Part shown: positions 5,404 through 18,180 of the stretch, in pieces
Position numbering within the stretch: the stretch's first letter is position 1
Layout of the letters: every line of letters begins with the position of its first letter
Assembly (NCBI GenBank): GCA_041389905.1
Contig: JAWKQY010000082.1
Span: forward strand, 1-31,678
Direction of reading: 5' to 3'
DNA from: Nannocystaceae bacterium
GTDB lineage: Bacteria; Myxococcota_A; Polyangia; Nannocystales; Nannocystaceae
DNA length: 31,678 nucleotides
Position numbers and translations under genes: made by a program
The notes under the pieces: generated by a model
Told to the model about the DNA's origin: nothing
Seen by the model: the letters and a program-made list of their open reading frames with translations, nothing else
Databases searched by the model: none

Positions 5404-8400
5404 CTAGGCGACGGCCAGGCCGACGCTGCGCCGGGCCTCGAAGTAGGCCTCGCTGACGCTGTAGACGATCAGCTCGGTGAGCGCGTCCTTGCCGGTGATG
5501 TTCACCGCCGACGAGCGCTGCTCGCTGCGGATCGCCTTGGCGGCGGCCTCGAGGTCGTTGCTCAGCAAGAGCCCGAGGCGGTAGCCGGCGATCGCCGCGG
5601 CCCGGGCCCAGCGCTTGACGTCCGTCTGGCCGAGCTCGCGCGCGAGCGCCTTCACCTTCTCGAGGTTCGCCGGCGGCAGGCGGTTGACGAGCTCCTGGAT
5701 GATGACCTGGACCCCTTGGCCGCCGTCGCCCGATCCGCGCTCGGCGAGCACGGAGCAGGCGACGAGGAGCTGGCCGAGGTTCTTCGGCGAGCGCTCGAGG
5801 AGGAAGAACGCGTGGTGCGGCGGGTAGAGCTCGAGGAGGTGGCGGGCGACCTCGAAGACGACCTCGCCGTCCGTCCGCTCCTGGCGCAGGAGGCTGCCGC
5901 GGGCGATCGCCACCTGCTCGACCTCGCCGCCGCGGCGACGGACGCTGTGGATCGTGATGTCGCCCGGCTCGCTGCGCAGGAAGTGGAGCTCCGGCTGCTG
6001 GACGTTGATGATCCGCGCGACGTACGAGAGCGCCTGCGCCGGCAGCGACGGGCTCTCGGCCGTGTCGATAGGCTCGCTGTCGCGGAGCTGCGGCGGCGCC
6101 GGCTTCGAACGCCAGGTCGCGAGCGCCGGGTCGACGAGGCCGAGGAGCATCGTCACCGTCGGATCCTGATCGCCGGGGAGCACCGTGCGCCGCAGCGTGT
6201 CGTCGCTCAGGCGCAGGCGCGCCTGGCGAAAGACCGCCGGCGGCCCGCTGCGGTAGAAGGCGCCCTCCTCGTCGGTCGCCTGCTTGAGGAAGAGGAGCGT
6301 GCGGGCGACGCAGTACGCCTTGTCGATCTCGTTTTGCTGGCGGTAGATGTTGTAGAGCTGGTGGTAGCTCCGGTAGTAGCTCGGATCGAGGCGGATGAGC
6401 GTGCTGTGGCTGCGGATGAGCGCGTCGGTGTACTGCGCCGGGTCCTGCTGCATCAGCATCCCGTAGAGCTCCGTGACCATGAGCTGGCGCTTGAAGTTGC
6501 TCGGATCGAGGCTCAGCGCGACCTCGAGGGCCTTGGCCGCGGACGCGTAGTCGCCGACGCGCGAGCGGTAGATCTCGGCGAGGTTGTGCCACAGGAGCTG
6601 CTTGAGCGGCGACTTGTCGTCGGCCGGCAGGCGCTTGATCATCTTGCGGTAGGCCCGCTCGAGCGCCTTCCAGTCCTTGCGCTTGGTGAGGATCGTGTCG
6701 ATCGCCTGGAACGCCTTGAGGAACTCGCGATCGTCGTCGAGGACCATGTCGAAGCGGCCGAGCGCCTCGTCGGGGTTGTCGAGGTTGTCGCGTTGGATCG
6801 CCGCCGAGGTGTAGAGGTACTTCGCCCGCCGCTTCGGCTCCTGCTCGCCGGCGATCAGCTCGTCGAGGATCGGCATCACCTCGGGCCAGCGCTTGGCCTC
6901 GGTGTGGAGGTCGAGGAGCGTGTGGAGGAGCGTCTTGTCGTCGGGGCGCAGCTCATGCGCGCGCTGGAAGGCGGCGACGGCCCGCCCCGGCTCGCCGAGG
7001 TGGTCGCGGAAGATCTTGCCGATCTCGACGAAGACGCCGGCCTTGGCGTCGCCCTCGAGCGTCGGCAGGCGCCCCTGGTGCGCCTTCAGGAGGCCGCGCC
7101 AGTCCTTGTTGTCGGCGTAGATCTCGGCGAGGCCGCTGTGCGCGTGGACGTTCTTGGGGTCGCAGCCCAGCGCCTCCTTGTAGTTCTGGATCGCGATGTC
7201 GCTGCGCCCCTGCGCCAGGGCGATCTCGGCGAGCTTGACGTGGACGCTCGCCTTGGCGTCGCCCTGGCGGCGGCCGAGGAGCTTCTCGTAGGCCATCCGC
7301 GCCTCGTCCCAGGACTTGCGGACCATGGCGAGCTCGGCGACGCCGACGAGCGCGTGGCTCGACTCGGGATCGATGTCGAGGGCGCGCTTGAAGAGCTTGC
7401 TCGCCTTCGACGTGCTGCCGATGGCGCGCGCGACCTGACCTGCGCGGACGAGCACGCCGACCTTGCTCGTGTCGCGCAGGCCGAGGTTGTCGATCTTGCG
7501 CACGAGCGCGTCGAAGATCGGCGCGGCGGCGACGTAGTTCTTCTGCTCGTAGTAGATCTTGCCGAGGATCGGCCCGACCTTCGCGTTCTCCGGGTCGATC
7601 TCGACGACCTTGGCGAACATCTGGATCGCCCGATCCTTGACCTGGAGCTTCTCGAGCCAGACGAAGCCGGCCTCGGTCGCCCGCTCGACGCGCTCGTAGC
7701 TGCTCGTCGTGTGCTCGACGATCGCCTCTAGCGCCTCGACGAGCTCGATCCACTCGTGGCGCGCGCGGAAGAGGTCGGCGAGGAGCTTGAGCGCCTCGAG
7801 GTGCCCGGGCGCGAGCTCGGTCGCCTGGTAGAGGCGGGCGATCGCCGAGTCGGTCTCGGAGAGCTTGTGGTGGAGGCCGCCGAGGTGGGCGAGCTGATCG
7901 GCGCAGCGCTTGCTGTCGGTGCACAGCTCGACGAAGCGCTCGTAGTGCGGGATGGCGTCCTCGATCTCCTGCTTGCGCTCGAGCGCCTGCGCGAGGCCGA
8001 GGTGGGCCTCGAGCGCGCCGTCGTCGGCGTCGATGAGCGCCCGGTAGATCTCGATCGCCTTGTCGTAGTTGAGGATGTGCCGGAGGTAGAGGTCGGCGAG
8101 CGAGCCCATCAGCTTGTGGACCGCGTCGTCGTCCGTGGCGAGCTCGAGGCGGCGGAGGTAGACGGCCTCGAGCTCGCGCCAGCGCTTGGCCTCGGAGTGG
8201 CGCTGGCCGAGCTGGAAGTAGGCGTAGTCGCGGCCCTGATTGATCCACTGGGACCAGCGCAGGTAGTCCTCGGAGTCCTTGGCCTCGCCGGCCATGGCGT
8301 TGAGGGCCCGATCCATCTTGTCGAGGACCTGGAGCTGATCGTCGGGGGAGGGCGCCGTCGCGAGCATCCCCTGCAGCGCCTCGATCGAGTAGAAGAGCGC

Positions 8401-9369
8401 CGAGTCCTTGGTCGGCTGCGCGCCGATCTGGCTCATCGCGCCGCCCGCCGCCGCGCCGACCGGCGCCCCCGCCGAGCCGCGCCGCGGCACCTTGCCCTCG
8501 TCGCTGATCTCGCGCAGGTCGTGCTCGAGGGCGCCGAGATCGGGGTAGCGATCCTCGGGCGCCTTGGCGAGGCAGCGCAGGATCACGGCCTCGACGGGCG
8601 GCGGGATGTCGGCGTCCGGGGCGATGTTCCGCGGCGGCGGCGGCGAGGCCATCGTGTGCTGGGTGACGACCTGGTGCGGCTCCTTGGCGGTGAAGGGCAC
8701 CGACCCGGTGAGGAGGCTGTAGAGGAGCACGCCGACCGAGTAGACGTCGGCGCGGACGTCGAAGGGCTTGCCCTCGGCCTCCTCCGGCGCGGCGAACTCG
8801 GCGACCTCGAGGAGCTCCGGGCCGCTGAAGATGTCGAGGCGCGGCGCCGGCGACAGGCCGAAGGCGGTGAGCTTGACGTGATCGAGGCCGTCGCCGGCGT
8901 CGACCATGAAGACGTTCGACGGGCGGACGCCGCCGTGGACGATCCCCTTGCCGTGGGCGACCCGCAGGGCGCCGAGCACCTGGAGGATCAGCCCCTTCGC
9001 CCGCGGCCAGGGGAAGCGCTGCGTGCCGGCCTGGAGGCTGCCCAGATCGCTGCCCTCGAGGTACTCGTAGATCAGGTAGACGGCGCCGGACTCCGTCGTC
9101 CCGTAGCTCATCAGGCGGGCGACGTTGGCGTGGCGGACGAGCGAGAGGATCCGCGCCTCGCGGAGCACCTTGGCCGCGAACTCCTCGTTCGCCGAGAGCT
9201 CCGGGTCGATGATCTTGGCGACCACCAGCTTGAGCAGGGTCGTCTGCTCGGCGAGGAAGAGCTGGCCGGAGTCACCTGGCCCGAGGTCCTCGGTGAGGGT
9301 GTACTTCTTGGCGATCACAGCGCCGACTTGCGGGACCGCGCCTCCATCAACGGGCGATGTATCGTTCAT
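5404..9369 (-). CDS. Pseudokinase-TPR giant protein: N-terminal Hanks-type kinase-like domain with degenerate catalytic motifs, followed by ~1000 aa of TPR repeats
   Basis: The track ORF 5404..9645 has an Arg-rich junk N-terminus. The plausible start is ATG at 9369 (MNDTSPVDGG...). The kinase fold is recognisable: GPGDSG Gly-loop, VVAKII with the Lys, APE-like AAPEE. The catalytic loop reads HGGVRPSN instead of HRDLKPxN, and DFG is replaced by AFG (KLTAFGLS). Downstream there are many A-x-x-Y/L helical repeats (TPR-like) to the C-terminus. Confidence 0.8.
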   Translation of the reverse strand: MNDTSPVDGGAVPQVGAVIAKKYTLTEDLGPGDSGQLFLAEQTTLLKLVVAKIIDPELSANEEFAAKVLREARILSLVRHANVARLMSYGTTESGAVYLIYEYLEGSDLGSLQAGTQRFPWPRAKGLILQVLGALRVAHGKGIVHGGVRPSNVFMVDAGDGLDHVKLTAFGLSPAPRLDIFSGPELLEVAEFAAPEEAEGKPFDVRADVYSVGVLLYSLLTGSVPFTAKEPHQVVTQHTMASPPPPRNIAPDADIPPPVEAVILRCLAKAPEDRYPDLGALEHDLREISDEGKVPRRGSAGAPVGAAAGGAMSQIGAQPTKDSALFYSIEALQGMLATAPSPDDQLQVLDKMDRALNAMAGEAKDSEDYLRWSQWINQGRDYAYFQLGQRHSEAKRWRELEAVYLRRLELATDDDAVHKLMGSLADLYLRHILNYDKAIEIYRALIDADDGALEAHLGLAQALERKQEIEDAIPHYERFVELCTDSKRCADQLAHLGGLHHKLSETDSAIARLYQATELAPGHLEALKLLADLFRARHEWIELVEALEAIVEHTTSSYERVERATEAGFVWLEKLQVKDRAIQMFAKVVEIDPENAKVGPILGKIYYEQKNYVAAAPIFDALVRKIDNLGLRDTSKVGVLVRAGQVARAIGSTSKASKLFKRALDIDPESSHALVGVAELAMVRKSWDEARMAYEKLLGRRQGDAKASVHVKLAEIALAQGRSDIAIQNYKEALGCDPKNVHAHSGLAEIYADNKDWRGLLKAHQGRLPTLEGDAKAGVFVEIGKIFRDHLGEPGRAVAAFQRAHELRPDDKTLLHTLLDLHTEAKRWPEVMPILDELIAGEQEPKRRAKYLYTSAAIQRDNLDNPDEALGRFDMVLDDDREFLKAFQAIDTILTKRKDWKALERAYRKMIKRLPADDKSPLKQLLWHNLAEIYRSRVGDYASAAKALEVALSLDPSNFKRQLMVTELYGMLMQQDPAQYTDALIRSHSTLIRLDPSYYRSYHQLYNIYRQQNEIDKAYCVARTLLFLKQATDEEGAFYRSGPPAVFRQARLRLSDDTLRRTVLPGDQDPTVTMLLGLVDPALATWRSKPAPPQLRDSEPIDTAESPSLPAQALSYVARIINVQQPELHFLRSEPGDITIHSVRRRGGEVEQVAIARGSLLRQERTDGEVVFEVARHLLELYPPHHAFFLLERSPKNLGQLLVACSVLAERGSGDGGQGVQVIIQELVNRLPPANLEKVKALARELGQTDVKRWARAAAIAGYRLGLLLSNDLEAAAKAIRSEQRSSAVNITGKDALTELIVYSVSEAYFEARRSVGLAVA

Positions 9370-9551
9370 AATCAGCCACTCGAACGATAGCCGATGTCGC
9401 GCGAGAGGTGGCCGTCGCGGCCGCGCTCGATGATTGCAGGTGCATGTTCCTGCGCGCGCGACAACGCGCGAAGCGAGGTGTTCGTGCGCGCGCATTCGCG
9501 CCCGTGAAGCCTCGCTCCGCGCGCGGACGAGCGCGCGCGCCGGCGCGCCGC

Positions 9552-10736
9552 TCAGTAGGCGACGCCGATGTCCGCGGCCTGCGAGCGCAGCATGTCGACG
9601 ACGCTGTTGTCGAAGCCGTCCGCGCCGCTGTTGTCCTCGACCCACGCGTCGCGCTTCTTCGCGACCTCGAGGATCTGCTTGTTGAGCGCCTCGCGCTGGC
9701 GGCGGAGGTCCGCGACGTAGGCCTGCTGCTCGCTCGTGCTCATCCGCTGCATGTTCTCCGGGAGCGCCTCGTTGGCGACGCGCTCGAGCTCGACGCGGCC
9801 CTCGTCGAGCGCCGAGAGGAGATCCTCGTCGTTGAGGCGCGCCGTCTTGGCGGAGTACGACGCCGCGTCCGCGGCCGCCTCGCCCGAGAGGGAGGAGCGC
9901 GCCCGCACCTTGCGGTGCGCCCTCGCCTTGTCCGTCGCGCTGCCCCAGCCGAGCGAGGTCGCGGCGAGCGAGCGGTTGAGCTCAGCGAGCTCGGCGTCGA
10001 AGGGGGAGTCGAGGCGATCGACGCCGCCGTCCTGATCGATGGTCGACATCTCGCCGCCGGCGAGCTGGGCGATCCGCGTCCACGCGGCGGCCGTCTCCGG
10101 CTGCTGCCCGCAGCGGATCGTGTTGATGACGATGCCCTTGGCCTTGGCCGCGGCCGCGAGGTCGCTGCTCGAGGGCCCGGCGTAGTCGTCGTGCGGCGGC
10201 GCGTCGCCGACGAGGAAGACGAGGCGGAGGACGTTGTCGCCCTGCTCCCAGGCCATGCCGTGGATCGCGTCGGCGAGGCCCTGGTTGACGTGCTCCGGGC
10301 CGTCGCCGCCGCCGCCCGCGGCGAGGGCGTTGAGGTCGCCCTGGAGGCCGTCGAGGTCGCGGGTGAGCGGCGAGTTGCGGGTGACGTACTCGTCGTTGAG
10401 ATCGCGGAAGGCGACGAGGCCGACGCGGATGTCCGGGCGCGGCTGCCCCGAGGCGAGGCGGTTGGCGATCGACCAGATCTTGCGCTTCGCGCCGTCGAGG
10501 AGCCCGCCCATCGAGCCCGTCGTGTCGACGACGAAGACGACGTCGATCCGCGGGCGCTGCTCCTGCTCGGGGCGGACGAGCGGCGCCTCGGGCTGCGCCT
10601 GGGTCTGCGCGCTGGCGGCGGTCGTCGGGACGTGCGTGGTGGGCTGGGGGATCGGCCAGATCTGGTTGGCGATCAGGGTCCCGCACATCAGGGAGGTGAG
10701 GGCGGCGCCGATGTAGATCATATGGGAGGTGCGCAT
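9552..10736 (-). CDS. Membrane-anchored von Willebrand factor type A (VWA) domain protein
   Basis: Start ATG at 10736 (MRTSHMIYIGAALTSLMCGTLIANQIW, a signal anchor/TM) with GGAG ~13 nt upstream. VWA/MIDAS signature at RIDVVFVVDTTGSMGG...LVAFRD...VFLVGDAPPHDD. C-terminal ~150 aa helical region. The track ORF 9552..10889 has a junk N-terminal extension. Confidence 0.8.
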   Translation of the reverse strand: MRTSHMIYIGAALTSLMCGTLIANQIWPIPQPTTHVPTTAASAQTQAQPEAPLVRPEQEQRPRIDVVFVVDTTGSMGGLLDGAKRKIWSIANRLASGQPRPDIRVGLVAFRDLNDEYVTRNSPLTRDLDGLQGDLNALAAGGGGDGPEHVNQGLADAIHGMAWEQGDNVLRLVFLVGDAPPHDDYAGPSSSDLAAAAKAKGIVINTIRCGQQPETAAAWTRIAQLAGGEMSTIDQDGGVDRLDSPFDAELAELNRSLAATSLGWGSATDKARAHRKVRARSSLSGEAAADAASYSAKTARLNDEDLLSALDEGRVELERVANEALPENMQRMSTSEQQAYVADLRRQREALNKQILEVAKKRDAWVEDNSGADGFDNSVVDMLRSQAADIGVAY

Positions 10737-10922
10737 GGTGGGTCTGCTCCTGTCTCTCGCGTGGGTGTCGCTCGGGGTGAACGCAGGATCCCCTAGGTCG
10801 GCGCAGGAGGCCTGTAAAAGCCGCGTAAAACACTCGTGCGCCGGCCGATACAAGCCGACCGCGGGCGTTCTACGCGGCACGAAGGACATGTCGACGAGGA
10901 CATGTCGCGGGCGCGGAGAGGG

Positions 10923-12107
10923 CTACTTGCAGGTCTTGAGCGCGGCCTTGACCTTCGACGACGAGCTCTTGCGCGCCGCGGCCTTCTGCGCCTCGGCGGT
11001 GCGCCCGAGCTTGCACAGCGCGAGGACCTCGATCTCGACCCGCTGCTCGACGAGCTGGCTGTCGGGGAACTCCTTGGCGTGCTGGCGGGTGTAGGCGAGC
11101 GCCTGCGCCGGGTTCGTCTTCAGCGACTTCTTCGCCTCGCTGAGCATCTGGAGCTCGATGATCACGCGGCCGGAGTCCTTCGCGCCCTTCTTCGACGAGG
11201 ACGTCGTCGTCGACGTGCTCGAGGTCGACGACGTGCTCTTCTTCTTGGTCGTCGCCTTCTTGGCCTTCTTGGTCGTCGACTTCTTCGTGGTGGTCGTCGC
11301 CGCGGCGGTCGCGTTCGTGTCGGCGCTAGCGTCTGCGCTGGCGCCCCCGGTGCCGTCTGTGCCGCTGTCTGTGTCGCCGCCGGTCGTCGTCGCGGGCTCG
11401 GGCTCGGGTTCTGGCTCTGGCTCTGGCTCTGGCTCGGGCTCGATCGGCGGCGGCTCTGGCTCTGGCTCGTCCTCGAGGAACGCGGGGACCCACGGCAGCT
11501 CGATGATCTCCTGCTGGTGGAGGACGATCGCCGCGGTCGCGCCGAGGGCGACGAAGCCGACGAGCGCGAGGATGATCAGGGGCCAGCGACGACGCTGGCC
11601 CAGGACCGCGTCAGGCCGGCCGTCGACGACGTCTTCGCCGCCCATCTCGCTCGAGAAGGTGCGACCCCGCGGCAGCGGGACCGAGCCGAGCTCGCTGGAG
11701 AACGTCCGTCCGTCGCCTGTCGCGACGTCGCCGAGCTCCGTCGAGAAGGTGCTCGCAGGTCGCCGCGCTGGGGCGCTCGGGGTCGACGCGGGGGCCGCGG
11801 GGTTCGCCTGCGCAGGCGCCTGGAAGGGGTGCTGATGCGGCTGGCCGAAGGGGTACTGGGGCGGCTGCTGCGGCTGCGGCTGGCCGAAGGGGTACTGGGG
11901 CGGCTGCTGCGGCTGCTGCTGGCCGAAGGGGTGCTGTTGCGGCTGCTGCTGCGGCTGACCGAAGGGGTGCTGTTGCGGCGGCTGTTGCGGCTGCTGTCCG
12001 AAGTTGCGGTGCTGTTGCGGCTGACCGGGTGCTGTTGCGGCTGTTGCGTTGGCCGAGGGGTGCTGTTGCGGCTGTTGCGGTTGGAAGGGAGGCTGTTGCG
12101 GCTGCTG
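10923..12107 (-). CDS. Membrane protein, 3' segment: Q/P-rich repeats (QQPQQxPFGQ), three TFSSE-like motifs, one TM helix, periplasmic (EP)n and Ser/Thr/Lys-rich linkers, small helical C-terminal domain
   Basis: The reading frame of track ORF 10923..11645 is open without stop up to 12107 but contains no ATG upstream of 11645. Hand translation upstream of 11645 gives ...QPQQPPQYPFGQPQPQQPPQYPFGQPHQHPFQAPAQANPAAPASTPSAPARRPASTFSTELGDVATGDGRTFSSELGSVPLPRGRTFSSEMGGEDVVDGRPDAVLGQRRRWPLIILALVGFVALG... The sequence is protein-like throughout. The minus-strand reading gives a Pro/Gln-rich protein, while the plus strand gives Gly/Arg/Leu junk. Confidence 0.6.
   Translation of the reverse strand, partial: QQPQQPPFQPQQPQQHPSANATAATAPGQPQQHRNFGQQPQQPPQQHPFGQPQQQPQQHPFGQQQPQQPPQYPFGQPQPQQPPQYPFGQPHQHPFQAPAQANPAAPASTPSAPARRPASTFSTELGDVATGDGRTFSSELGSVPLPRGRTFSSEMGGEDVVDGRPDAVLGQRRRWPLIILALVGFVALGATAAIVLHQQEIIELPWVPAFLEDEPEPEPPPIEPEPEPEPEPEPEPEPATTTGGDTDSGTDGTGGASADASADTNATAAATTTTKKSTTKKAKKATTKKKSTSSTSSTSTTTSSSKKGAKDSGRVIIELQMLSEAKKSLKTNPAQALAYTRQHAKEFPDSQLVEQRVEIEVLALCKLGRTAEAQKAAARKSSSSKVKAALKTCK
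11391..11470. repeat. (ggctct/ggctcg)n hexanucleotide microsatellite encoding the (EP)n linker on the minus strand
   Basis: Direct reading: ggctcgggctcgggttctggctctggctctggctctggctcgggctcg ... ggctctggctctggctcg. Confidence 0.8.
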
Positions 12108-12130
12108 TCAAGGGGCACTGCGGCTGCTGC
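11830..12130. repeat. Imperfect ~33-bp tandem repeats (ggccgaaggggtactggggcggctgctgcggctg-like), ~8 copies, encoding QQPQQPPQYPFGQ units
   Basis: Repeated ccgaagggg(t/g)(a/g)ctg(g/t)(g/t)gcggctgctgcggctg blocks are visible by eye. Confidence 0.7.
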
Positions 12131-12519
12131 TGCTGGCTGGGCCGAAGGTGCTGCGGATGTTGTTGTCCGGGGGTGGGCGAGAGGTGCGGCTGCGGCTGCG
12201 GTTGCTGCTGGGTTGGGCGAAGGGTGCGGCTGCGCTGCGTTGCTGCTGCGGTTGGGCGAAAGGGGTGCGGCTGCGCCTGGGGTTGCTGCGCGTACGCTTG
12301 CGGCTGCGGCTGCTTGCGGATGACCGTAGGGCTGCGGCTGCTGGGCGGCGGGCTGCTGGGTCGGCTGCGGCTGGCCGAAGGGATAGCCAGGGGCCTGCGC
12401 CTGAGGTTGCCCGAAGGGCTGAGCCTGCTGCGCGTGCGACGAGGCCTCCTCGGCGGAGGGGGCGCTCGGCGCCTCCGAAGCCTGTCCAGGCTGGGCGAGG
12501 GCCCTGTGGTGGGGCGTGC

Positions 12520-12910
12520 GGTGAGCCGAGGGGGGGCTGGTTGAGAGGGCTCCCGGACGCGTGAACCTGCCCGAAGGGACCGGTCGGGGGCTGGTTGAGG
12601 GCTCTGGGTCGCGGGGGCGTGCGGCGAGAGCCGAGGGGCTGGTTCGGACCGTCTCGGGCTGGTTGGGGGCTCTGGGTCGCGGGGGCGTGCTGGTTGAGAG
12701 GGCTCCCGGACGCGTGAACCTGCCGGATCAGTCGGGGGCTGGTTGAGGGCTCTGGGTCGCGGGGGCGATGCGGCGAGCCGAGGGGGAGCTGGTTGAGGGC
12801 TGCCGGACGCGTGAACCTGCCCAGAGGACCGGTCGGGGGATGGTTGAGGGCTCTGGGTCGCGGGGGCGTGCGGCGAGCCGAGGGGAGGATGGTTGAGGGG
12901 GGTCCCGGAT
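12520..12910. repeat. Long-unit tandem repeats (~100-155 bp unit, ~3 copies) within the repeat gene
   Basis: ctggttgagagggctcccggacgcgtgaacctgcc recurs at ~12537, ~12693 and ~12790 (the last as ctggttgagggctgccggacgcgtgaacctgccc). ggctctgggtcgcgggggcgtgc recurs about 5 times. Confidence 0.7.
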
Positions 12911-13194
12911 GCCGAAGTTTGAGGGCTCTGGGTCGAAAGGTTGAGCTCTGGGTCGAGGGGGCGCTCGGGAGCCGAGGGGCGGGAGGCCCGATCCATGAGC
13001 TTGGCCGAAGGCTGCGGTTGGTCGAGGGCTCTGGGTCCGGGGGCGTGCCGAGCCCAGGGGAGGCTGGTTGGGGGGCTGCCGGTTTGAGGCTGTCCGAAGG
13101 GACTTGTAGGGGAGGCGGGAGGAGAGGGCTCTGCGTCGACGGGGCGCTCTGCCCAGAGGCGGAGGCAGGCTGTCGAGGGGACTTGTAGAGGGGA

Positions 13195-13530
13195 GGCGGG
13201 AGGAAGGGCTCTGAGGCGACGTTGGTTGAGCGGCTCTGCGAACTCAGGCGGTTGGTTGAGCGGGCTCTGAGGTGGTTGGTGAGCGGGGCTTTGAGGCGGT
13301 TGGTTAGCGGGCTCCTGAGGTGGTTGGTTGAGCGGGCTCTGAGAGGTGGTGAGCAGGGCTCCGCGGCGGTTGGTTGAGCGGGCTCTGGGGGCTTGATTGA
13401 GCGGGCTCGAGGTGGTTGATTGAGCGGGCTCTGAGGGGGCTGATTGAGCGAAGGGCTCCGCGGCTGATTGAGCAGGCTCCGGGGGGCTGATTGAGCGGGC
13501 TCTGAGGGGGCTGATTGAGCGGGTTCTGAG
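13195..13530. repeat. Short-unit degenerate tandem repeat (~23-25 bp unit, ~13 copies): g(g)ttg(a/g)ttgagcgggctctgagg
   Basis: Direct reading. Spacer length varies by 1-2 nt between copies, so the encoded PLNQPPQS / AQSAPSEP / RSISPLRA peptides are the same DNA unit read in three phases. Confidence 0.75.
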
Positions 13531-13994
13531 GCGCGCGCGCGAAGGGCCCCTGGGGAGGTCCGAGGGGGGCGCTAGGCCGGTTGAGCGGGTTGGGGGCCAC
13601 GAGCCCGATGAGCGTCCCTTTCGGCGCGCCCGACGGGGTCGCGGCGGGACGCGGCGTCTGGAAGCCCGCGGGCACCTGCCACGTCGGGGCCGCCGGCTTG
13701 GCCTCGGTCTCGGGTTCAGGCTCAGGCTTCGGCTCGGGCCCGCCGACGAGCGACGGGATGTTCCACGGCTGCTTGGGATCGTCGTTGGCCACGCGACCGA
13801 GATAGTCTCACGGCCGGGCCGCGCTCGCACCATCGCGCCGTGCGCCCCCCGAGGACCCGCCTACACGCCGCTCGGCCTCCGATCTCCTCGGATGACGCCG
13901 CGGCAAACATCGCGCGCGCCGCGGGAGCGGCGCTCGACTCGGCTCGAGGTGCGGTCCGTCGCGGTCGGCGACGCAGCGGCGGCGTCGCGAGCGG

Positions 13995-14558
13995 CTAGGA
14001 CGGTTGAACGGCCGACGCCGACGGGCGCGCGCCGAGCTTGTTGCCGAACTTGTCCCCGCAGCGGGTCATGATCTCGGTGGCGCGGCTCTTGGTGATCTCG
14101 CGCGGCGACGCGTTGGTGAGCGCGTGGGCCTGGCAGCGCGCGACGTCGACGTCCTTGTTCGCGAGGCACTCGTCGCGCGCCTTGTCGAGGTCCATCGGCT
14201 TGAAGACGTTCCAGCGCTCGAGCTCGTCGGGCTTGCCGGCGAGCCGGCGCTGGACGAAGTCGTCGTAGGCCTGGCGCATCGCGTCGCAGGCGCCCGCGAG
14301 ATCGGTCGGGATGTCACCGCCGTCGGGGACGATCGTCAGGGCGTCGATGGCCTCGCGGACAGCCTGCTCGGCCTTCGCCGCGGTGCGCTCCTTGAGCCGC
14401 TTCATGTCGCGTGTCGCCTCCTTGGCGGCGGCCTCGGGGTCGGCGTTCTCAAAGGCCTTGGCGATGCTGTTGCGGGTCTTGGCCTTGTCGCCGTCGCCAC
14501 AGGCAGAGGCGGTAAGGAGCAGGCCTATGGCGATGAGCGCGGACTTGGTGGTGGGCAT
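13995..14558 (-). CDS. Small periplasmic lipoprotein of unknown function (4 additional Cys)
   Basis: Start ATG at 14558 with GGAGG 8 nt upstream. MPTTKSALIAIGLLLTASAC is a signal peptide with lipobox. The rest is Lys/Glu/Ala-rich and helical. The track ORF 13995..14660 has a 34-aa junk extension. Confidence 0.7.
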   Translation of the reverse strand: MPTTKSALIAIGLLLTASACGDGDKAKTRNSIAKAFENADPEAAAKEATRDMKRLKERTAAKAEQAVREAIDALTIVPDGGDIPTDLAGACDAMRQAYDDFVQRRLAGKPDELERWNVFKPMDLDKARDECLANKDVDVARCQAHALTNASPREITKSRATEIMTRCGDKFGNKLGARPSASAVQPS

Positions 14559-14967
14559 ACGAAGACCTCCGTGTCGAGCGAATGCGCACTCCGATATGCC
14601 ACGGGGCGAATGCGACCGACAAGGGTCGATCTCCGCGGGTGATGATGGCGCGTCGCCCACTGTCCCGTTACGCGCCGCTCGCCGCCGCGGCGGCGCCTCT
14701 CGCAGCGCGGCCGCGCCCCTCAGCCCGCCGACGCCGACCGCGACTTCGTTGACTCGTCACGGACTTTCGGCCCGCGCAGCGACGGCGGCGCGGGCGTCTC
14801 GGGCGGCGCCGCCGATCGCCCCGAGGCGCCCCTGCGCGCTCGTCTGCGCGAGGCGTGCGCTCAAAGATTTCTCTGGCGATCGTCTGGCGCTACGTCCAGG
14901 ATAGTCGGGCTGGGCTGCTTTATGCAGGGGGGCACGCGGGGAGAGGCGCCGAGGTCGGGATAAGGCG

Positions 14968-17900
14968 ATGGATCTGACGCTACTTGCGAGAGAGCGCGTG
15001 GGGAAGGTCCTGCGTGGCAAGTACCACTTGGATCGCCTCATCGACGTCGGCGGCATGGCTGCGGTCTACGAGGCGACCCACCGTAACGGTACGCGCTCCG
15101 CGATCAAGGTGCTCCACCCGAAGTACGTCTCGGACGTGCAGGCGCGGACGCGGTTCCTCCGCGAGGGCTACGCGGCCAACCACGTCGGTCACCCCGGCTC
15201 GGTCACCGTGATCGACGACGACTTCACCGAAGACGGTGAGGTCTACCTGGTGATGGAGCTCCTCGACGGCGAGTCGCTCGAGAGCTGCCTCGCCCGCGAG
15301 CGGGTGCTCCAGCCGCTCGACGTCCTCAGCATCGGCGATCAGCTCCTCGACGTCCTCACGGCGGCGCACGCCAAGGACATCATCCACCGCGACATCAAGC
15401 CCGCGAACATCATGCTGACGCGGAGCGGGATCGTGAAGCTCCTCGACTTCGGCCTCGCCCGCGTGCGCGAGCTGCCGGCGGTCGCCGGGGTCCACAGCGC
15501 GGAGATCGTCTTCGGCACGGTCGCCTACGTCTCGCCAGAGGCCGCGCGCGCGAACAACGACGCGATGGACGGGCGCGCGGACCTCTGGGCGGTCGCGGCG
15601 ACGATGTTCAAGGCGCTCACCGGCGAGACCGTCCACGGCATGGACGGGTCGGTGATGGAGCGCCTGATCCGGGCGGCGAAGGACCACGCGCGCTCGCTCG
15701 GCGAGCTCGCGCCGCACCTCCACCCGCGCGTCGTCGACGTCATCGATCGCGCCCTCGCGTTCAAGCGCGAGGATCGCTGGCCGAGCGCCGCGGTGATGCA
15801 GGCGGTCATCCAGGACGTCATCGCGGAGCTGATGGAAGAGACAGGCGTCCCGCCGTCGATCTTCTTCATGCCGGCGCTGTCGCAGATGGTCGCGGTGTAC
15901 ACGCCCTCGGGGCCGATGTCGTCGTCGTCGGCCGCGGCGACGCCGACGCCGCGGCCGATGGCCTACAACCCGCACCTGGCGACGCCGTCGCCGAGCCCGT
16001 ACCCGTACCCGGCCGCCCACGCGACGCCGTCGCCGTCGCCGTCGCCCTTCGCCAACCCGCTCAACCAAGTGCGCGGGCGGGCGCCGCAGGCCTACGTCCC
16101 GCAGACGCCGCAGGTCAACTACGCCAACCCGCTCAACCAGGTGCACGGCCGCCGGCAGCAGCAGCCGCAGCAGCAGCCGCAGCCGCGACCGCAGGCCTAC
16201 AACCCGCTCAACCAGGTCTCCGCGCCGCCGCGCTCGCACGCCCGCCCTCAGAGCGCGCCGCAAAACCAAGCCCGCGGCGCCTACGGCCCGGACGCGATGA
16301 ACCAGGCGCGCGGGCACGACCCGTACGCGCAGCAGCGCCGCCCGCCTGCGCGGCCGCAGGGCGACGGATCCTTTGACATCGACATCGACATCGACATCGA
16401 TCTCGACGTCGACCTGGGCGGCGACCCTCGCGAGCTGACGACGACGTCGGAGAACGTGGGCACGCGGCCGGCCGCGCTCGCCGACGAAGCGGAGCCGGCG
16501 CGCCCCCTTCGCCGCGCGACGACGATGCGCGACCTCGGGGCCGCGGCGGCGCGCGCCCGGGCGACGCTCGACGCCCGCCTGCGCGGCTCGACCCCGGTCG
16601 CTCCGCCAGCGCCCGAGCCAGCGCCAGCGCCAGCGCCCGCCGAGGACTTCGAGATCGACATCGGCTTCGGCGAGAGCACGAGCGCCGGCGTGGTGGTCGA
16701 GGTCGCGGAGAGCACGACCTCCGGGGTGGTGATCGACGTCGACGAGCACTACACGCCGGAGCGCCAGCCGTCTGTCTCTGGGGACATCTACGACGAGGAC
16801 GAGTTCATCGACGGCGAGGAGCTCGACTCGGGCGTCGAGTTCGTCTCTGGCGACGACGACGACGAGTACGATGCGAGCGACGCGAGCGCGGGGCGCAGGA
16901 CGTCGGAGGACACCGTCCGGATGGCGATCCCGCAGCCCAGCGAGGACACCGTCAAGCGCCCGCCGCCGGAGCTGCCAAGCGAGCAGACGGTCCGTCGCCC
17001 CTTCCCGCAGCCGCCTGTCGCGGCGGTGAGCGGTGAGATCGGCGCGCCGACGATCGCGTCGCCGCCGACGATCGCCGCGCCGCCGACGATCGCGTCGCCG
17101 CGGGGCCGAGGGGCGCCGCGGATCGCTGCGCCGCCGACGGTCGTGTCGCCGCCGACGATCGGGACGCCGCCGACGATCGGGACGCCGCCGACGATCGGGA
17201 CGCCGCCGACGATCGCCGCGCCGAGGATCGTGTCGCCGCCGACGATCGCCAGCGGTCGCAGCGAGGACACGGTCCGCGGCCCCGCGCCGCTCCCTCCCAG
17301 CGAGGACACCGTCCGCGAGCGAGGCCCGGAGGCCAGCGGCATGGAGGCGGGGATCCTCGTCGAGGCGATCGAGGACGAGGGCGACTGGCCCGAGGACGAG
17401 GTCTGGGGCGCCCCTGCGACGGGCGCAGAGGCGGCCGAGCGGCCCCCCGAGGTGATCGCCGAGGAGGCCGCGCCCGAGGTCGCCGAGGAGGAGGCGAAGC
17501 CCGCCCGGAAGTCGCTGTTCACGCCGCGCTCGAAGGGCTCGCTCGGCGGGCTCCTCGGCCTGCCGCCGATGGGCTCGCGCTTCACCGGGAGCTCGCGCCT
17601 GCAGACCAAGGCCGAGGAGGAGGAGGCGCAGCGCGAGGCGGAGGCGGCGGCGAAGCGCGAGGCAGAAGAGGCGGCGCGGCGCGAGGCGGAGGCGGCGGCG
17701 AAGCGCAAGGCAGAAGAGGCGGCGCGGCGCGAGGCGGAGGCGGCGGCGAAGCGCGAGGCCGAGGAGACGGAGAGGCGCGAGGAGGCGGCGCGGCGCGAGG
17801 AGGAGCGCAGGCCGCCGCGGCGCAGCGCGACGAGGAGCGCAGGGCGGCGGCGACGAAGCGCGCCGAGGAGCGCAAGGCGGCGCGGCGCGAGGCCGAGGCG

Positions 17901-18180
17901 CGGGCGAAGGCGCGGCGTGAGGCCGAGGAGAGGGAGAAGGCGGCGCCGGAGCGGCCGCGCCGAAGCGGACGGTCGGCGCCGGCAGCCGCGGCCTCGATCG
18001 CCTCTTCATCCCTGCGCGGGCCGGCGGCGCCTTTCGCGATCCGGTCGTCGTCGACGCGTCGACGACGACGCTGACCCCCCCGGATCGCACGGTGCGGGTC
18101 GCCATCCGGGCCCCGTCGACGCTCCCCGATCTCGGCGTCGGTCAGCGCTCCTTCGGCGCGAAGCCGCCGAAGGCCGGTGA
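14968..18180 (+). CDS. Active Hanks-type Ser/Thr protein kinase with a ~750-aa repeat-rich intrinsically disordered tail; the 3' end is frameshifted and the true C-terminus is probably at 18403
   Basis: N-terminal ~270 aa have all catalytic motifs: G-loop VGGMAAVYEA, AIKVL Lys, HRDIKPANIM, DFG, SPEAA. The tail contains NPLNQV x3, (DI)n, PPTI(A/G)x hexapeptides x~10, PSEDTV(R/K) x5, a REAEAAAKREAEEAAR coiled-coil x3, and VDEVEV x3. After ~17805 the frame-1 reading becomes Arg-rich junk, while frames 0 then 2 carry protein-like sequence to the TAG at 18401-18403. Confidence 0.85.
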   Translation: MDLTLLARERVGKVLRGKYHLDRLIDVGGMAAVYEATHRNGTRSAIKVLHPKYVSDVQARTRFLREGYAANHVGHPGSVTVIDDDFTEDGEVYLVMELLDGESLESCLARERVLQPLDVLSIGDQLLDVLTAAHAKDIIHRDIKPANIMLTRSGIVKLLDFGLARVRELPAVAGVHSAEIVFGTVAYVSPEAARANNDAMDGRADLWAVAATMFKALTGETVHGMDGSVMERLIRAAKDHARSLGELAPHLHPRVVDVIDRALAFKREDRWPSAAVMQAVIQDVIAELMEETGVPPSIFFMPALSQMVAVYTPSGPMSSSSAAATPTPRPMAYNPHLATPSPSPYPYPAAHATPSPSPSPFANPLNQVRGRAPQAYVPQTPQVNYANPLNQVHGRRQQQPQQQPQPRPQAYNPLNQVSAPPRSHARPQSAPQNQARGAYGPDAMNQARGHDPYAQQRRPPARPQGDGSFDIDIDIDIDLDVDLGGDPRELTTTSENVGTRPAALADEAEPARPLRRATTMRDLGAAAARARATLDARLRGSTPVAPPAPEPAPAPAPAEDFEIDIGFGESTSAGVVVEVAESTTSGVVIDVDEHYTPERQPSVSGDIYDEDEFIDGEELDSGVEFVSGDDDDEYDASDASAGRRTSEDTVRMAIPQPSEDTVKRPPPELPSEQTVRRPFPQPPVAAVSGEIGAPTIASPPTIAAPPTIASPRGRGAPRIAAPPTVVSPPTIGTPPTIGTPPTIGTPPTIAAPRIVSPPTIASGRSEDTVRGPAPLPPSEDTVRERGPEASGMEAGILVEAIEDEGDWPEDEVWGAPATGAEAAERPPEVIAEEAAPEVAEEEAKPARKSLFTPRSKGSLGGLLGLPPMGSRFTGSSRLQTKAEEEEAQREAEAAAKREAEEAARREAEAAAKRKAEEAARREAEAAAKREAEETERREEAARREEERRPPRRSATRSAGRRRRSAPRSARRRGARPRRGRRRGVRPRRGRRRRRSGRAEADGRRRQPRPRSPLHPCAGRRRLSRSGRRRRVDDDADPPGSHGAGRHPGPVDAPRSRRRSALLRREAAEGR
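17041..17240. repeat. 18-bp tandem repeats encoding PPTI(G/A)(T/S/A) hexapeptides (~10 copies; three perfect copies of ccgacgatcgggacgccg at ~17153-17210)
   Basis: Direct reading of the kinase-tail DNA. Confidence 0.8.

Follow-up and report, generated by a model that had tools for sequence, protein, structure and literature searches.

How should a gene be read when its two ends are clean and its repetitive middle passes through all three frames of one strand? The question is raised by a repeat-dense membrane-protein gene at positions 10923–13792 (minus strand) of contig JAWKQY010000082.1 of a Nannocystaceae bacterium (assembly GCA_041389905.1); the whole stretch analysed (31,678 nucleotides (nt), with a G+C content of ~71%) is hereafter called the window. 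A sequence-only reading of this DNA had offered three explanations for the hopping frame: a sequencing or assembly collapse in tandem repeats, a decaying gene, or a contingency locus at which changes in repeat number toggle the expression of a surface protein. We favour a technical explanation, with one amendment: the sequence holds scattered base-level insertions and deletions (indels) instead of collapsed repeat copies, and these are probably residual errors, left in the repeats of a gene that is itself intact and has ~955 codons.

A conserved gene with clean ends

The neighbouring vWA gene served as the anchor in the search for syntenic loci, and all related loci found lie in metagenome-assembled genomes (MAGs) that were recovered from metagenomes and are labelled Polyangia or Myxococcales. 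Four related MAG loci share one gene order, that is, a divergent Ser/Thr kinase, a protein of 220 amino acids (aa), the gene considered here, a vWA protein and a kinase–TPR protein. Comparison of orthologous loci, which the sequence-only reading had proposed as a check, returned an intact orthologue from a short-read MAG (locus L002, a SPAdes contig of 278 kb), in which the gene is a single uninterrupted open reading frame (ORF) of 722 aa (L002:7382-9550), together with conserved ends in the orthologues at L003, L004 and L001/L082. With the gene in the window, the L002 orthologue shares the N-terminal motif (there MSNDDRKEPWNIPSLV), HPFAQQQ and PLNQPP repeats, TFSSEL motifs, the transmembrane helix, the (EP)n stretch and the C-terminal domain.

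At the 5′ end, three-frame translation recovers the credible N-terminus that had been reported in another frame than that of the C-terminal part: it reads V/MANDDPKQPWNIPSLV... from the GTG at 13792, and its motif is conserved among orthologues as MSNDDRKEPWNIPSLV, MANDDPKEPWTIPSLV and MANDDPKQPWNIPSLV. This N-terminal segment is 65% identical to protein P0153 of the MAG HKST-UBA11, and its alignment with L082 contains two gaps whose lengths (6 and 27 nt) are divisible by three. At the 3′ end, frame 1 of the minus strand has no stop between 12107 and the TAG at 10923-10925 (394 codons), in agreement with the clean 3′ ORF described earlier, and encodes in order the Q/P repeats QQPQQPPQYPFGQ, three TFSSEL-type motifs, RRRW with the transmembrane helix, the (EP)n and S/T/K-rich stretches and the C-terminal domain. 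A stop at 12108-12110 parts this frame from the upstream one, which places the junction where it had been reported (near 12108); the statement that the 3′ ORF has no ATG does not hold, as frame 1 contains one at 11645, which is internal judging by the orthologues. Over five sequences, the C-terminal 250 residues are 58–84% identical. Judged by these conserved ends and their synteny, the gene is a real, conserved myxobacterial membrane-protein gene.

A decaying gene would here be a genuine lineage-specific pseudogene, in which real small indels have gathered in the repeats and a 162-aa N-terminal and a 240-aa C-terminal ORF are the remnants. Such a reading accommodates the fact, seen directly in the sequence, that the frame is broken many times, and repeats and G/C runs are natural hot spots for indels. 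The flanks, however, are under purifying selection: the ratio of non-synonymous to synonymous substitution rates (dN/dS), taken against L001, is 0.26 in the C-terminal part, identical to that of the adjacent vWA gene (0.26), and against L002 it is 0.32–0.34 at both gene ends, so that values across the two ends (0.26–0.34) are not near 1.

Repeat arrays and the wandering frame

Tandem Repeats Finder (TRF) recovers periods of 24 bp (Array A; Table 1), ~100/148 bp (Array B), 40 bp (Array C) and 39/30 bp (Array D), with indels of 5–15%; the periods of 24 and ~100/148 bp bear out the tandem repeats described in the sequence-only reading. The consensus units measure 24, 39 and ~105 bp (the best copy in Array B is 54 + 51 = 105 bp), all of them codon multiples, and the arrays are degenerate, with 67–86% matches by TRF and wrap-around alignment. 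The earlier premise of repeat units indivisible by three is thus mistaken; the frame is changed by scattered indels of 1–2 nt inside the units.

That the frame hops beyond chance was upheld by two signals. The G+C content at third codon positions (GC3) is 0.9–1.0 in one frame at both gene ends and mixed in the middle. Viterbi decoding of codon usage places 31, 20 and 15 shifts in 12024-13481 at penalties of 6, 8 and 10, versus 14, 4 and 2 false calls in the intact repeat region of L002; owing to these false shifts, the count is used comparatively only. The same peptide units do occur in all three phases, with counts in frames 0/1/2 of 6/8/3 for xLNQ and 2/8/2 for PF[GA]Q. The order of the motifs gives at least nine net phase changes, and we estimate the real frame breaks at roughly 15–30.

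All shifts fall within the indel-ridden region listed in Table 1, which is also where the gene repeats itself internally. Clean in frame are ~310 bp at the N-terminus, ~1.1 kb at the C-terminus, a 200-bp island within the noisy region and ~190 bp of repeats that adjoin the unique C-terminal flank, and neither indels nor stops occur in the gene's ~1.4 kb of coding sequence outside the repeats. This distribution argues against a pseudogene, the disruptions of which would be spread over the gene.

Array A can be dissected most finely. It holds 12 indel events in 285 bp, none of which (0/12) is a multiple of three, and its 33 mismatches to the consensus fall on the first, second and third codon positions as 6/5/22 (binomial p = 9e-5 for the third-position excess). 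Because the mismatches lie mainly at third positions, each unit, read in its own frame, still resembles coding sequence, and a non-coding character is confined to the indels. A pseudogene would be expected to have lost this bias (22/33), and it is also poorly matched by the 11 mismatches at first and second positions set against 12 indels in the same 285 bp, a ratio of indels to substitutions that far exceeds the one usual in neutral decay. Several indels change only the length of a homopolymer between motif copies that are identical otherwise (from CCCC to CCC, from TT to T or TTT, and from GGG to GG). In Array C, the copies CACCCCTTTCGCCC (12267) and CACCCTTCGCCC (12226) deviate from the clean form CACCCCTTCGG. 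Across the arrays, the variants of this form are CACCCC-TCGG (12062), CACCC-TTCGCC (12226) and CACCCCTTTCGCC (12267).

These properties also bear on the proposal of a contingency (that is, phase-variable) locus, in which slipped-strand changes in copy number would toggle a surface protein. Known contingency genes use simple sequence repeats, for example, CTCTT in opa of Neisseria and tetranucleotides in Haemophilus, and the gene studied here resembles them in having tandem repeats in the coding region of an envelope-associated membrane protein and a frame that is sensitive to how long the repeats are. It differs in that gain or loss of a unit of 24, 39 or ~105 bp would keep the frame, and in that the arrays are degenerate (67–86% matches) instead of near-perfect. 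At least nine net independent intra-unit changes separate the present sequence from an open frame, more than one slippage event could reverse. The part of the protein that the repeats specify is predicted to be cytoplasmic and disordered; it lies N-terminal to the RRRW–transmembrane segment and would hence not be surface-exposed. In the orthologues the repeats are in frame. We therefore reject this proposal as highly improbable.

Two long ORFs that overlap the gene were considered as coding candidates and dismissed. The frame-0 ORF of 740 aa (11611-13833, minus strand) has low GC3 at its N-terminal end and an Arg-rich, off-frame product without homology, and the plus-strand ORF of 495 aa (10836-12323) runs antisense to the minus-strand frame, which is conserved and has its match in the orthologues. 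Both are Arg/Ala-rich shadow ORFs of a kind that arises as an artefact of high G+C content.

Table 1 Coordinates in the window of the gene, its repeat arrays and encoded parts, and the frame changes in the adjacent kinase
Feature	Position	Strand	Description
Whole gene, as expected intact	10923–13792	−	~955 codons; GTG start 13792, TAG stop 10923-10925; both ends match the L002/L003/L004/L001/L082 orthologues in conserved synteny
N-terminal segment, clean	13483–13792	−	VANDDPKQPWNIPSLV...NPLNQPPQSPLNQPP; GC3 0.83–0.93 in its frame (frame 2); ~310 bp
Indel-ridden repeat region	12024–13482	−	~1.45 kb; phase wanders over three frames (motif phases, Viterbi shifts, mixed GC3, overlap with internal repeats)
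Array A	13246–13533	−	~12 units of 24 bp, encoding QSPLNQPP
Array B	12532–12909	−	Composite unit of ~105 bp, LNQPPTGPFGQVHASGSP + LNQPPLGSRRTPPRPRA; half-units of 48–54 bp (TRF and half-unit alignment)
Low-repeat island within the noisy region	12325–12524	−	200 bp in a single frame, …SEAPSAPSAEEASSHAQQAQPFGQPQAQAPGYPFGQ…
Array C	12170–12289	−	HPFAQP-type units; TRF period 40, ~42 expected; motif copies vary in homopolymer length
Array D	11836–12107	−	39-bp units encoding QQPQQPPQYPFGQ; clean to ~12024, noisy above
Three TFS(S/T)E(L/M) motifs	11643–11750	−	Directly before the membrane helix; kept in orthologues
RRRW and hydrophobic transmembrane helix	11511–11594	−	Positive charge on the N-terminal side
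(EP)n spacer	11391–11474	−	From sequence
S/T/K-rich low-complexity stretch	11178–11390	−	From sequence
C-terminal helical TPR-like domain	10926–11177	−	~84 residues; ends ...ALCKLGR...KTCK
Ser/Thr kinase frame changes	17783–17960 within 14968–18400	+	Frame 1 to 3 near 17805 and 3 to 2 near 17955; in or adjoining its 30-bp AEEAARRE-type repeats

Assembly technology and the origin of the indels

The condition of the gene in related MAGs varies with how they were assembled. In HKST-UBA11, the closest relative and a short-read MAG, two contig ends inside the repeats split the gene into pieces that both keep the frame (L082 2501-2846 stops in a PLNQPP array and L001 1-1016 begins in an HPFGQ array). 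In L004, a run of N lies at the repeats, and in L002 the PLNQ array that is the counterpart of Array A has 0% indels. At L003 (HK-STAS-MYXO-15, 7563-9784), the repeats are spanned and three frameshifts lie inside a 24-copy, 24-bp PFAQPQQQ array, so that an annotation would show this orthologue as a pair of overlapping ORFs. The HK-STAS-MYXO-15 MAG series stems from a Nanopore and Illumina hybrid study (PMC8518188). The contig breaks of HKST-UBA11, the run of N in L004 and the frameshifts of L003 indicate that short reads were unable to bridge the region and that the sole bridging assembly based on long reads is frameshifted there.

The gene is not the only one affected in the window. Those genes that could be compared with L002 and L003 align in one frame, including that of the 1330-residue kinase–TPR protein, with the divergent Ser/Thr kinase as the sole exception. 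Near 17805, the kinase gene reads AGGCC where the in-frame reading requires AGGGCC; in agreement with the orthologues, its true C-terminus (…KLPSLPKRPPKK, followed by the stop) is reached at 18400 in another frame, and the 1070-aa ORF that ends at 18180 has a spurious Arg-rich tail.

We favour a technical origin because the intact L002 orthologue has the same parts in the same gene order, because the integrity of the gene follows assembly technology (in frame or on broken contigs in short-read MAGs, frameshifted in the hybrid one), because the indels are confined to repeats and several of them are changes in homopolymer length, because flank dN/dS and third-position bias together form a coding signature, and because a second repeat-bearing gene, the kinase, is frameshifted at its repeats in the same assembly while the other compared genes keep a single frame. 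On this basis, the repetitive middle of ~1.45 kb would carry ~15–30 residual errors of 1–2 nt from sequencing and assembly. The assembly was most probably a long-read or hybrid one in which short-read polishing fixed the unique sequence and not the repeats, or in which the repeats were bridged by a long-read consensus of low depth.

For a pseudogene, the same observations are awkward. The kinase would need an equal, repeat-restricted pseudogene status, the same gene carries frameshifts in a hybrid long-read MAG that is unrelated, yet is intact in a short-read MAG, and dozens of small indels would be required in repeats only, with no decay elsewhere and with the codon-position bias retained. 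We consider genuine decay unlikely.

Errors in repeats that outlast short-read polishing are a documented failure mode (PMC8812927). Compared with residual errors of this kind, which Polypolish addresses, the gene in the window is alike in its repeat-confined, frameshifting indels of 1–2 nt, its clean unique sequence, the involvement of more than one repeat-bearing gene and the presence of the same defect in the orthologous gene of a hybrid MAG; it differs in that the indel density of Array A is at the high end and many of the indels lie outside homopolymers.

Several points weigh against a technical origin, which we infer from the comparison of sequences. Exact look-ups of five proteins of the window (the 240-aa C-terminal ORF, the vWA protein, a DnaJ-like protein, a 543-aa and a 349-aa protein) matched no entry of the contig index, and a metagenome scan gave a single distant locus (L081), so that a second assembly of this species did not come to light. 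Indels of ~4% in Array A are high for a polished consensus, and roughly half of the indels lie outside homopolymers. No frame breaks occur in the block of most perfect repetition (11836-12000), the kinase frameshift at ~17955 lies just outside a repeat array, and tandem arrays elsewhere in the window (17616-17782, 18179-18246 and 20672-20848) are in frame.

A second technical explanation would be a chimeric consensus, in which co-existing strains with differing repeats were merged during metagenome assembly; such merging, too, yields spurious small indels. It is in keeping with the origin of all related loci (that is, MAGs from metagenomes), with the variation in repeat length between relatives (722 aa in L002 versus ~955 codons here) and with the restriction of the errors to repeats; the changes in homopolymer length, however, suit read error better than the mixing of strains. 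Strain chimerism and unpolished long-read error are indistinguishable from the sequence at hand, and we regard the former as rather improbable. Programmed frameshifting would have to account for too many shifts, and a diversity-generating retroelement would be expected to leave adenine-specific substitutions, not indels; neither appears to be a suitable candidate.

The encoded protein and what the locus means

On the basis of the positive-inside rule and the layout of its parts, the product is predicted to be a bitopic inner-membrane protein with its N-terminus inside and its C-terminus outside. Its conserved N-terminal motif would be followed by a long cytoplasmic, disordered Q/P-rich region of PLNQPP and HPF(G/A)Q repeats that bears short linear motifs, by the three TFSSEL motifs and by the transmembrane helix, beyond which a periplasmic spacer ((EP)n and S/T/K-rich) would lead to a small TPR-like domain. 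The protein matches no Pfam or NCBIfam family. When the 302-aa C-terminal part was queried in a word-indexed search for homologues, low-complexity words dominated and the one match was irrelevant, and a query trimmed to the transmembrane helix and the domain returned only a 118-aa fragment.

The AlphaFold2 model of the C-terminal domain has five helices and a predicted local distance difference test (pLDDT) score of 94, and the top Foldseek matches are the TPR domains of YbgF/CpoB, BamD, LpoP, Sec72 and CHIP (TM-scores relative to the query of 0.6–0.74, with all E-values >0.1). In Pfam searches, the domain had no match above the gathering score for TPR, and its relatives gave only sub-threshold matches to TPR_14 and TPR_19. 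Of 1.8 billion cluster representatives, 1362 are relatives of the domain; wherever members were inspected, it stands at the C-terminus, after a transmembrane helix and a Pro-rich linker, and some members of the family carry region 4 of an extracytoplasmic function (ECF) sigma factor at the N-terminus. These fusions suggest a signalling context of the sigma/anti-sigma type for the domain family. The protein resembles this uncurated myxobacterial family of transmembrane proteins with a C-terminal mini-TPR domain in its matching C-terminal 85 residues and their predicted TPR-like fold, and differs from it in having no sigma-like N-terminus, much longer Q/P repeats and a distinct N-terminal motif.

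Two further systems offer themselves for comparison. Like TonB and the bitopic GltJ/GltG envelope proteins of Myxococcus, the protein would combine a single transmembrane helix with a proline-rich or (EP)n periplasmic spacer, and the likeness to GltJ would extend to a periplasmic TPR domain and a cytoplasmic Pro-rich region. However, the matches to the respective NCBIfam models are far below the cut-offs (26 bits versus 315 for TonB and 22 bits versus 450 for GltJ) and come from low-complexity stretches, and Pfam and NCBIfam searches detected none of the defining domains (that is, a TonB C-terminal domain, a GltJ zinc ribbon or a GYF domain) in the protein.

Among its neighbours, the gene directly upstream (13995-14660, minus strand) encodes a conserved 221-aa protein with a lipoprotein-like signal (…LLTASAC), which is syntenic in L002, L003 and L082 and has no Pfam family. 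Farther away, a membrane-protein gene (20203-21357, minus strand) contains an in-frame tandem array of 6 bp with ~29 copies (20672-20848) that encodes (DA)n/(DADI) runs. The peptide NPLNQ is found three times in the divergent kinase (NPLNQV, 16057-16215, plus strand) and many times in the repeat protein (PLNQPP, 12532-13533, minus strand), and both sets are conserved in the L002–L004 orthologues. It may be a short linear binding motif common to the two proteins.

The main value of the locus is as a caution against the over-interpretation of such sequences in long-read and hybrid MAGs. Gene callers would split it into the 162-aa N-terminal and 240-aa C-terminal ORFs, the 740-aa shadow ORF and the 495-aa ORF on the opposite strand, it may be flagged as a pseudogene or as phase-variable, and the neighbouring kinase receives a wrong C-terminus. 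The telltale pattern consists of indels in repeats only, coding-like substitutions, clean flanks, intact orthologues in short-read assemblies and a gene that is broken in another hybrid MAG. Were the indels real after all, which strikes us as doubtful, the window's copy of a conserved Q/P-repeat membrane-scaffold gene would have been broken up recently, next to a frameshifted kinase gene, and this would imply an unusual process of repeat-targeted micro-indels or the separate expression of N- and C-terminal remnants. Most likely, the locus is an ordinary one and not a biological switch: it belongs to an uncharacterized, modestly interesting gene family, found here only in four related Polyangia/Myxococcales MAGs, and the NPLNQ peptide shared with the adjacent kinase points to a protein that may be a kinase-linked scaffold of the cell envelope.

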